From Candidatus Bathyarchaeota archaeon (GTDB lineage: Archaea; Thermoproteota; Bathyarchaeia; 40CM-2-53-6), in the NCBI GenBank assembly GCA_963706285.1, contig CAVPLU010000004.1, forward strand, positions 288,001 through 352,000: a stretch of 64,000 nucleotides of DNA. The letters are read 5' to 3'. The translations under genes and the position numbers were made by a program. Positions within the stretch are counted from its first letter, which is position 1. Each line of letters starts with the position of its first letter. Positions 54,751 to 60,391 of this stretch are shown here, piece by piece. A model generated the notes under the pieces. That model made no database searches. It was given only the letters and a program-made list of their open reading frames with translations, and had not been told where the DNA came from.

Positions 54751-54884
54751 GCTCCGGTAGTATAGCCCGGTCATGCGCAAAGCGCCGAGAGTATGCTGGC
54801 CTCTCGCGACACATCGGAGAAAGCCAGCGACGCGGGTTCAAAATGATCAAGAAGACAGATCATGAAAATCCCGCCCGGAGCACC
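54751..54884 (+). tRNA. tRNA-Glu(CTC) with three introns (D-loop, 37/38, 59/60)
   Basis: Removing 54774-54789, 54807-54821 and 54843-54867 gives GCTCCGGTAGTATAGCCCGGTCAAGTATGCTGGCCTCTCGAGCCAGCGACGCGGGTTCAAATCCCGCCCGGAGCACCA (78 nt). Confidence 0.93.
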
Positions 54885-59078: not shown

Positions 59079-60134
59079 ATGAGCCGCCAACGTTTCCTTA
59101 GTCATCCAACGAAATTGTTCGAAATCTCTTCCGGCAAGACAACAGATCAACTGCTTTCTGAAATGGCATCTACGGCCTTCCAAGGAAGAAGACTTGGTGA
59201 GGCCTTTGAGATTTGGACTCGAATGTTGAAGAAACGACAGATAGTCATCTGGATGGGAATCGCAGGCGCAATGGTGCCGGCTGGCATGCGGAAGATCATT
59301 ACGCAGTTGATCAGACGAAGAATGATAGACGTTCTAGTTACAACTGGCGCAACGATCTATCACGACGCCTATGAAGCAACCGGTGGAAAGCACTTCAAAG
59401 GAACCGACAAGGTTGATGACGTGCAACTCAGGAAGTATAAAGTTGACAGAATGTACGATGTCTACGCTGACGAGAAGAAGTTCTATCGCCTAGATAACGA
59501 GATTGACAGAGAGTTCTGCTCTGTCCTTCGAGATAACTATCCATACTCTTCTCGTCAGATCACCGAGAAGCTTGGCGCTTGGCTATCAGAGAGAGCTCGA
59601 GACAGGGACAGCATCTCAATTGCAGCGAAAGAGGCTGGTGTTCCGATCTTCCTTCCGGCCCTCTGCGACAGTTCCCTTGGTTTTGCGATGATGTTCGCGA
59701 ATAGGAGAAGAGGTAGAAAAATCATCGTCGATCACATGAAGGATGTTCATGAGAGCGCTCTGATCACTGAGAAATCATCAAGAAGTGGAGTTGTGATTTT
59801 CGGAGGTGGAGTCCCTAAGAACTTCATACAGCAGTCCGCTGTTGTTGCAAGCTATGCGACGCGGCATGACAGGAAGCACGACTACGCGCTACAAGTTACC
59901 ACGGACGCTGCACATTGGGGTGGTCTTAGCGGAGCCACCCTTGAAGAGGCAAAGAGCTGGGGCAAATACAGCGCAAGGGCACAAATGGTCACATGCTACG
60001 CGGATTCCACCATAGCATTGCCTATGCTAGGTCAGGGTCTTGCTGAAAGGTTCAAGCGGATGAGAAGAGACGTTCCAAGGTTCGATTGGACAGCTGACAC
60101 ACTCAGGATCACGTTCCAGAGGTTCAGGGCATAA
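59079..60134 (+). CDS. dys: Deoxyhypusine synthase
   Basis: AGAMVPAG, GGGVPKNF and WGGLSGATLEEAKSWGK (catalytic Lys) motifs. Confidence 0.93.
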   Translation: MSRQRFLSHPTKLFEISSGKTTDQLLSEMASTAFQGRRLGEAFEIWTRMLKKRQIVIWMGIAGAMVPAGMRKIITQLIRRRMIDVLVTTGATIYHDAYEATGGKHFKGTDKVDDVQLRKYKVDRMYDVYADEKKFYRLDNEIDREFCSVLRDNYPYSSRQITEKLGAWLSERARDRDSISIAAKEAGVPIFLPALCDSSLGFAMMFANRRRGRKIIVDHMKDVHESALITEKSSRSGVVIFGGGVPKNFIQQSAVVASYATRHDRKHDYALQVTTDAAHWGGLSGATLEEAKSWGKYSARAQMVTCYADSTIALPMLGQGLAERFKRMRRDVPRFDWTADTLRITFQRFRA

Positions 60135-60194
60135 GCGTCAGAGCTTGGGGCTACATAGCTAAATAGTTGCGAACGTCGGTCTAGGAATGGGCCC

Positions 60195-60319
60195 GGGCCC
60201 GTAAGGAAATGAGAATCCCGGGAAGCTCAGCCAGGTTGGAGCGACCGTAACACGTCCATGGGACAAAGTTGTCGAAGCTCATAACCGGTTGGTCGGGCGT
60301 TCAAATCGCCCCGGGCCCA
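60195..60319 (+). tRNA. tRNA-Ile2(CAT) with two introns (9/10, 30/31)
   Basis: Removing 60204-60224 and 60248-60276 gives GGGCCCGTAGCTCAGCCAGGTTGGAGCGACCGGCTCATAACCGGTTGGTCGGGCGTTCAAATCGCCCCGGGCCCA. The GGGCCC acceptor favours Ile2 over Met (inference). TAAATA at 60160-60165. Confidence 0.9.
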
Positions 60320-60391
60320 TCACAATGATTCTCAATGAGAGTTCCTGTCTTGCGGCGCAGAAGTCAGCTGCGTCAGCGTACTCATTTGCGC

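Follow-up and report, generated by a model that had tools for sequence, protein, structure and literature searches.

How can the splicing machinery of an archaeon excise a transfer RNA (tRNA) intron that lies so close to the acceptor stem that the splicing motif and the cloverleaf are mutually exclusive? The question is raised by a tRNA(CAU) gene of Candidatus Bathyarchaeota archaeon (assembly GCA_963706285.1), found in a 64,000-nucleotide (nt) stretch of contig CAVPLU010000004.1, positions 288,001 to 352,000 of the forward strand. This whole stretch (C4:288001-352000 of an assembly of 2.13 Mb in 21 contigs, with 51% G+C, 89% completeness and 7.5% contamination) is “the window” below, and coordinates without a contig label refer to it. 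We propose, with a probability that we put at roughly 70%, that the 5′ leader of this tRNA, and of others with an intron at nt 7-10, is a selected cis-acting surrogate 5′ acceptor strand, which clamps the 3′ end of the precursor while the real 5′ strand forms the bulge-helix-bulge (BHB) motif recognised in splicing. Such a surrogate strand would be a simple and testable answer to the puzzle of acceptor-near introns.

The tRNA(CAU) gene occupies positions 60195-60319 of the plus strand and has two introns, one of 21 nt between nt 9 and 10 (9/10) and one of 29 nt in the anticodon stem. Both are in the strict hBHBh′ form, in which the BHB is flanked by an outer and an inner helix, and they are the two strict motifs among the eight candidates obtained by enumerating BHBs over 60195-60319. 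Exon 1, GGGCCCGTA (60195-60203), holds tRNA nt 1-9 and is followed by intron 1 (60204-60224). The initial annotation had described a complete BHB here that uses up the whole 5′ acceptor strand, and the enumeration reproduces it in every helix and bulge: a 3-bp outer helix of G1-G3 with nt 11-13 (one G-U), a central helix CCCG/CGGG with 4/4 pairs, the bulges TA^A and AA^G, and a 3-bp inner helix GGA/TCC. All of nt 1-7 lie within the motif, nt 4-7 paired with the intron and nt 1-3 with the 5′ strand of the D-stem, so that the acceptor stem would have to be absent from the splicing substrate. Exon 2 (60225-60247) runs from the D-arm to the 5′ side of the anticodon stem, whose 5′ strand is interrupted at about 30/31 by intron 2 (60248-60276; outer and inner helices of 3 bp each, central helix CGAC/GTCG with 4/4 pairs), and exon 3 (60277-60319) extends from the anticodon loop CTCATAA to the discriminator A73. 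The exons are collinear on one strand within 125 nt, and removal of both introns in silico leaves a product of 75 nt, in which ARAGORN finds a clean cloverleaf with anticodon CAT (stems of 7/4/5/5 bp, with U8, A14, GG, U33 and TTCAAAT in place).

What, then, holds the 3′ acceptor strand while its partner is engaged elsewhere? Directly 5′ of G1 (60195) lies the leader segment ATGGGCCC (60187-60194, plus strand), which is the exact complement of GGGCCCAT (60313-60320, plus strand), that is, of nt 67-72, A73 and the first trailer base. The GGGCCC within it repeats tRNA nt 1-6 in tandem. The helix between leader and 3′ end is uninterrupted over 8-9 bp, the longer segment ATGGGCCCG pairing with nt 66-74, and both BHBs of the precursor are located elsewhere than in this helix. 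The position of the segment immediately before G1 and its 8-bp pairing are thus as they had first been reported. The same holds for the TAAATA said to begin at 60160 (60160-60165), which is part of the TATA-like box CTAAATAG (60159-60166, plus strand), 28 nt upstream of the leader segment; from this spacing, the transcription start is predicted at about 60186-60190.

The window offers two tRNAs for comparison. A solver of our own, which allows BHB “jumps” and any intron at 37/38 and checks the cloverleaf and the conserved bases, finds three tRNAs in it, with scores of 49-52 (the spliced CAU product reaching 52) against a noise ceiling of 44.5: CAU, Glu(CTC) and Asn(GTT). The tRNA-Asn(GTT) gene on the minus strand (25893-25734) is the “first” case of a decoy leader to which the initial annotation alluded, and its anatomy was confirmed. 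It contains four introns, at 8/9 (25885-25857), in the anticodon stem (25835-25810), at the canonical 37/38 (25802-25789) and in the T-stem (25775-25757). Its leader segment, GGTGCCGCCG (25909-25900, minus strand), pairs with nt 66-75, which are the 3′ acceptor strand, G73, C74 and C75; the GCCGCCG in it is an exact, non-palindromic copy of nt 1-7, preceded by GGT and separated from G1 by the 6-nt spacer AATAGA. The BHB of the 8/9 intron has a 4-bp outer helix reaching into the leader, a central helix with one C-A mismatch and a 2-bp inner helix. In the BHB of the canonical intron, the outer helix forms only once the neighbouring intron has been removed, which hints at an obligatory order of splicing in this tRNA. 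The tRNA-Glu(CTC) gene (54751-54882, plus strand) has three introns, all away from the acceptor stem, in the D-arm (54779-54796), the anticodon loop (54807-54821) and the T-loop (54843-54868). It had been put forward as an internal control with neither acceptor-proximal intron nor duplicate, and it serves as one: no complement was found in its leader, the best leader 7-mer agreeing at 6/7 positions, with two G-U and not contiguously.

Does the pairing follow the position of the intron beyond these three genes? Over the source genome the solver gave 29 credible rows, namely 27 distinct genes and two near-identical second copies on small contigs. With a leader helix defined as 7 or more contiguous base pairs with the 3′ acceptor strand, at most one of them G-U, the helix is present in six of the seven solved tRNAs whose first intron lies at nt 7-10 and in 0/22 of the other rows (Fisher p=1.5e-5), where the longest leader helix is 2-5 bp. 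The six are CAU and Asn, Arg-CCG (leader segment CGGGCGGG), Gln-TTG (TGGCCCGG, with a 10/11 intron), Cys (GCCGGGG) and a Gly/Pro-like gene at C3:165727 (TGGGGCTG). The two glutamine genes make the association visible within a pair of close paralogues, which have the same acceptor and a common 3′ flank of more than 50 nt: Gln-TTG (C4:264371, plus strand) combines its 10/11 intron with the leader segment, while Gln-CTG (C12:127304, plus strand) has its first intron in the D-loop and no leader match. A permissive rescan, in which an intron after nt 7-12 was accepted with or without a BHB, recovered Gln-CTG and no further gene of the class.

We extended the comparison to relatives by taking four loci as queries against 40-100 genomes of the same order, applying the solver to the retrieved loci and keeping the best model per genome; as genomes of one order are not independent, the resulting counts express consistency and not probability. 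For CAU, intron and helix occur together in 10 genomes, all of the source's own genus, neither occurs in seven (six other families), and no genome has one without the other. Intron 1 measures 20-21 nt in 10/10 genus members, and the leader is kept as (A/T)TGGGCCC in 10/10, with varying bases adjoining it. The initial annotation had expected intron-less orthologues of this tRNA to lack the duplication, which they do: in 7/7 without the 9/10 intron, the longest leader helix is 3-5 bp. Arg-CCG has both features in 13 genomes from three families and neither in 15, of which 14 belong to a sister genus of the same family; the helix alone is found in none, and the intron alone in none apart from two ambiguous cases. 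Asn has intron and helix in 30 of 30 solved loci, spread over ten genera and six families, with two more cases lying outside the filters. Both features are likewise combined in all solved loci of Cys (five) and Lys-CTT (one), and the exceptions to the rule all fall in tRNA-Phe (both features in three genomes, intron only in five, helix only in two, neither in two). A complete relative from another family, G039, was tiled and yielded 24 solved tRNAs; only Asn has a 5′-proximal intron there, and the helix is found in Asn alone (9 bp) and in 0/23 others. When the whole phylum was searched by BLAST with the Asn locus, 5/71 genomes matched; the two loci from orders other than this one (L234, L236) yielded no solved tRNA. 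In a pattern scan for Asn genes with a leader copy, GC-rich bacterial chance matches dominate, real tRNA-Asn accounting for 2 of the first 80 loci listed; these two, both from Candidatus Bathyarchaeota archaeon, were selected by the pattern and hence are not independent support.

These counts bear directly on the simplest objection, that the CAU match by itself is a coincidence of a short palindrome in a GC-rich acceptor stem. The initial annotation had raised this caveat. As to the sequence it was right, since GGGCCC is self-complementary and a tandem copy of it pairs with the 3′ strand automatically; by the loosest metric, even the intron-less CAU gene of G039 has a leader, GGGTTTG, that pairs at 7/7 positions through three G-U. 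As an explanation it does not survive the cases GCCGCCG, GGGCGGG, GCCGGGG and GCCGAGG, the pattern recurring at five non-palindromic acceptor sequences. The segment is moreover kept throughout the genus amid changing flanks and is not found in the orthologues without the 9/10 intron. We therefore regard coincidence as extremely improbable, and it is the genome-wide and cross-genome counts, not this single palindromic hexamer, that exclude it.

Given two copies of the same strand, one may also ask which of them is the tRNA. Either copy could pair with the 3′ strand, and for Arg-CCG in two relatives, G002 (L063) and G008 (L062), the solver offered alternative starts, so the genuine 5′ acceptor strand might be the upstream copy, with the downstream one lying inside a longer intron. 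The strict BHBs, however, use the downstream copy (nt 4-7 in the central helix and nt 1-3 in the outer), a splice from the upstream copy of Asn (C4:313906) has 0/4 central pairs, and U8 and A9 follow the downstream copy only, except in the 10-nt repeat of G002 and G008. We give this assignment very little credence. Two other identities were considered for the segment and rejected. A promoter element is ruled out, as the segment differs from tRNA to tRNA and matches the end of its own tRNA. An attachment site of an integrative element would be expected to show a repeat of tens of bases, usually of the 3′ part of the tRNA, and a flanking element with an integrase; the repeat here is 6-10 nt long, derives from the 5′ end and lies 0-15 nt upstream with no insert.

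A more serious question is whether the pairing itself has been selected, or whether the copy is a neutral scar of the gain of a 5′-proximal intron, for example by tandem duplication of exon 1, with no role in processing. In G002 and G008 the Arg-CCG gene has a perfect tandem 10-nt repeat (nt 1-9 and the first intron base, which leaves the start ambiguous), and this suggests duplication as the origin of such segments. Four observations nevertheless favour selection for pairing with the 3′ end. First, the 7-mer of Asn is invariant across the 30 genomes and six families, next to a spacer of 5-15 nt of unrelated sequence. Second, in 14/19 tRNA-species-by-genus lineages the helix is not confined to the copied bases but takes in N73 and, in many cases, C74, C75 and A76: the copy is preceded by GGT or TGG in Asn, Phe and Lys, by a C opposite G73 in Arg, and by a T opposite A73 in CAU, Gln and the C3 gene. 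Pairs with N73 and CCA are not explicable by copying of the 5′ strand. Third, the three differences found within nt 1-6 of the copies (A1>G in Gln, C5>T in Lys and C6>T in the C3 tRNA) are all G-U compatible. Fourth, the promoter is displaced. The TATA-like 8-mer starts upstream of the segment, at a median of 31 nt (interquartile range 29-32, n=36) from the segment's 5′ end, and at −48 relative to +1 in these genes versus about −41 (a noisy value) in other tRNAs; the predicted transcript would hence begin at the leader segment. The initial annotation depended on the leader being transcribed, and this spacing predicts that it is. On balance, a neutral scar seems to us an unlikely account of the segments.

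Would the helix form in the precursor? Minimum free energy (MFE) structures at 70 °C pair the leader segment with the 3′ strand in 6/6 helix-bearing precursors, and the Phe precursor retains its acceptor stem; for CAU, the leader is paired with the 3′ end in the MFE structure at 25, 37 and 70 °C. In the unspliced RNAs at 25 °C, a forced leader helix is better than the true acceptor stem by 0.6-13.8 kcal/mol. Splicing in silico lowers this preference in 5/6 and reverses it for CAU and Arg. The modelled probability of the first BHB is 100- to 10,000-fold higher than with the leader deleted. The MFE structure of CAU keeps the leader helix together with the central and inner helices of BHB 1, and not BHB 2, and a CAU conformer with the leader helix and two BHBs is 6 kcal/mol better than the corresponding conformer with the true acceptor stem. 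The folding models are supportive but not decisive, and absolute conformer probabilities were not taken as evidence. DNA of the source organism occurs in wetland, peat and freshwater metagenomes; at the moderate temperatures of such habitats, a 7-bp G+C-rich acceptor stem would be expected to open with difficulty.

Several observations count against a surrogate strand. Phe-GAA, the seventh gene of the genome with an intron at nt 7-10, is without the helix, its leader offering no more than GCCGA at −32. Within the own genus, five genomes combine an 8/9 intron of Phe with a degenerate leader that agrees at 4-6/7 positions (TCCCAGC, TCCCAGG or GCCCAGG versus GCCGAGG), much as a decaying scar would. 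Two relatives, G032 (L097) and G037 (L105), conversely have a leader helix of 7-8 bp at Phe(GAA) and no 8/9 intron, a state that a scar would also explain; here, the intron may have been lost and the leader element left behind. The repeat in G002 and G008 makes duplication at least the origin of some copies. Coverage is partial: the solver recovered about 28 of the roughly 46 tRNA genes expected in the genome, so that unseen counter-examples are possible, and it gave no model for 8/24 CAU, 3/30 Asn, 1/30 Arg and 8/20 Phe loci of the relatives. Kinship among these genomes means that most positives trace to few ancient events. Of the folding results, the first-BHB probability rises only 1- to 100-fold when the comparison is with shuffled leaders, with no rise for Arg-CCG; complete BHB conformers are improbable in the nearest-neighbour model (about 1e-7 to 1e-2), the CAU conformer with leader helix and two BHBs lying at −36.1 against −60.8 kcal/mol for the MFE structure at 37 °C; and in 4/6 the preference for the leader helix outlasts in-silico splicing, so that release of the leader must rely on tertiary folding or on ribonuclease P (RNase P).

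This persistence after splicing would also suit a helix that serves mainly for end control, hiding the CCA or acceptor end from aminoacylation, the CCA-adding enzyme, RNase P and exonucleases until the tRNA is spliced. The helix often covers C74, C75 and A76, and most genes here encode CCA, as such a role would have it. End control should be just as useful with introns elsewhere, yet the helix is lacking from all 22 such rows of this genome and all 23 such tRNAs of G039; it tracks only those introns whose BHB consumes the 5′ acceptor strand. For this reason, we think end control improbable as its principal function and retain the surrogate acceptor strand as our reading.

The decoy mechanism that we infer from the anatomy, the co-occurrence and the folding models, including the formation of the helix in vivo, its requirement in cleavage or ligation and the sequence of steps, would run as follows. 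Transcription would begin at the leader or 1-3 nt upstream of it, and the complementarity of this leader takes in the 3′ acceptor strand and, in most cases, N73 and C74-C75(-A76) as well. The leader would then pair with the 3′ end, thereby taking away the strongest competitor of the BHB and closing the precursor into one domain. After cleavage, the leader helix would tether the 5′ mini-exon of 8-10 nt to the tRNA body for ligation. In the spliced RNA, the real 5′ strand would displace the leader through strand exchange, and RNase P would finally cut at +1 and remove leader and spacer. An RNase P RNA is present in the genome (C4:378576-378861, 183.7 bits), as are two EndA-family open reading frames (PF01974; 200 and 181 aa), which are listed at C12:149004-149243 and C6:75200-75433; two paralogues would fit a two-subunit enzyme of broad specificity.

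One may go further, and more speculatively, and suppose that an intron at nt 7-10 is tolerated only if the transcript begins with such an “anti-3′-end” leader, and that these precursors are programmed two-state RNAs. State 1, with the leader helix and the BHBs, would be the substrate of endonuclease and ligase, the mini-exon being held as in a split tRNA; splicing would trigger the strand exchange to state 2, the cloverleaf, which would be the sole substrate of RNase P. We offer this generalisation tentatively, as a possibility to which we give less than even odds.

How does the proposed arrangement compare with known systems? BHB introns at non-canonical sites, multiple BHB introns, and tRNAs that are split or permuted are all well described. 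In natural eukaryotic and bacterial precursors, pairing between leader and trailer or leader and acceptor modulates cleavage by RNase P, and a synthetic RNase P riboswitch reportedly exerts leader-based control of the same step. Our case resembles these in that pairing of the 5′ leader would set the timing of 5′-end maturation, and differs in being tied to intron position, the leader replacing the 5′ strand of the acceptor for the sake of a splicing motif. Archaeal introns outside 37/38 have hBHBh′ or relaxed BHB motifs and may occur several to a gene (Yoshihisa 2014, PMC4090602; Fujishima & Kanai 2014, PMC4033280). The introns of the present genome, up to four per tRNA gene, share with them the positions off 37/38, the recognition through a BHB and the multiplicity; in the sections cited, these accounts describe intron and motif, and not a leader complementary to the 3′ acceptor end (PMC4090602, PMC4033280). 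Closest by analogy are the split tRNAs of Nanoarchaeum equitans and other archaea, whose halves are held together by complementary leader and trailer sequences (PMC4090602, PMC4033280, PMC3218864). There as here, judging from the portions cited, a GC-rich duplex contributed by a non-tRNA extension would join the pieces through cleavage and ligation, the piece in our case being a 5′ exon of 8-10 nt. The differences are that there is one transcript here, that the partner of the extension is the 3′ acceptor strand of the tRNA itself, with N73 and CCA, rather than a second extension, and that the duplex lies outside the BHB, the extension presumably being removed later by RNase P. Permuted tRNA genes, known from Cyanidioschyzon merolae and Thermofilum pendens (PMC3728597, PMC3218864), are similar, on the evidence of the parts cited, in that leader pairing presents a processing motif in a disrupted precursor; here, by contrast, the gene order is normal, there is no BHB at the boundary of the leader helix, and no circular intermediate is implied. 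In the full-text literature, to the extent that it was accessible, no description was found of a leader complementary to the 3′ acceptor strand and tied to 5′-proximal introns, although the supplements of surveys could bear on the point, and we consider the novelty of the association with nt 7-10 introns provisional.

Some features of the CAU gene and its genomic setting remain to be described. The gene sits in the spacer after its only neighbouring open reading frame (59079-60134), which ends 53 nt before the leader segment. The spliced tRNA agrees with tRNA-Ile(GAU) of the same genome at 58/75 positions and with a Met-like CAU gene at 53/75, a suggestive but no more than suggestive pointer, on sequence likeness, to Ile2 over Met. 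The model of the Met-like gene (C4:222230-222337, plus strand; anticodon CAT) includes a “variable arm” of 21 nt, for which an additional, unsolved intron near position 45 is the probable explanation. CCA is encoded by most other tRNA genes of the genome and not by tRNA(CAU), whose trailer reads TCAC (60320-60323); among the genus members compared, five encode it at this gene and four others do not. Three pairs of near-identical loci are shared between contigs, C20:1503-1610 with C4:222230-222337, C20:9025-9127 with C4:230576-230678 and C1:14037-14186 with C6:90769-90918; such tRNA loci on small and large contigs fit the 7.5% contamination or strain heterogeneity.

Most tRNA genes of the genome have 1-4 introns, many of them at non-canonical sites. 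ARAGORN and Rfam, the latter at gathering and E-value thresholds, find no tRNA in the 64-kb window, though at least three are present, and a focused Rfam run returned only a chance match to “Plastid-ycf2” on the minus strand (E=0.054). Genome-wide, ARAGORN with introns allowed reports 25 loci and RF00005 reports 23, none of them in the window and several mis-modelled; these tools recover about half of the expected tRNA set.

A rule that infers an intron at nt 7-10 wherever the leader complements the 3′ end would aid the annotation of heavily disrupted tRNA sets in uncultured archaea; none of the three tRNAs of the window is seen by the standard finders. Should the two-state generalisation hold, the leader element would supply a rule, general and predictable, for the annotation of disrupted tRNAs, and would bridge, in evolution, the gap between split tRNA genes and those with introns. 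The surrogate strand also provides a concrete model for ordered processing, with splicing before 5′ maturation, and for the drift of a tRNA gene towards a split gene. If the reading is correct, leader RNA at the 5′ end of an archaeal tRNA need not be disposable, but can act as a functional element under selection.

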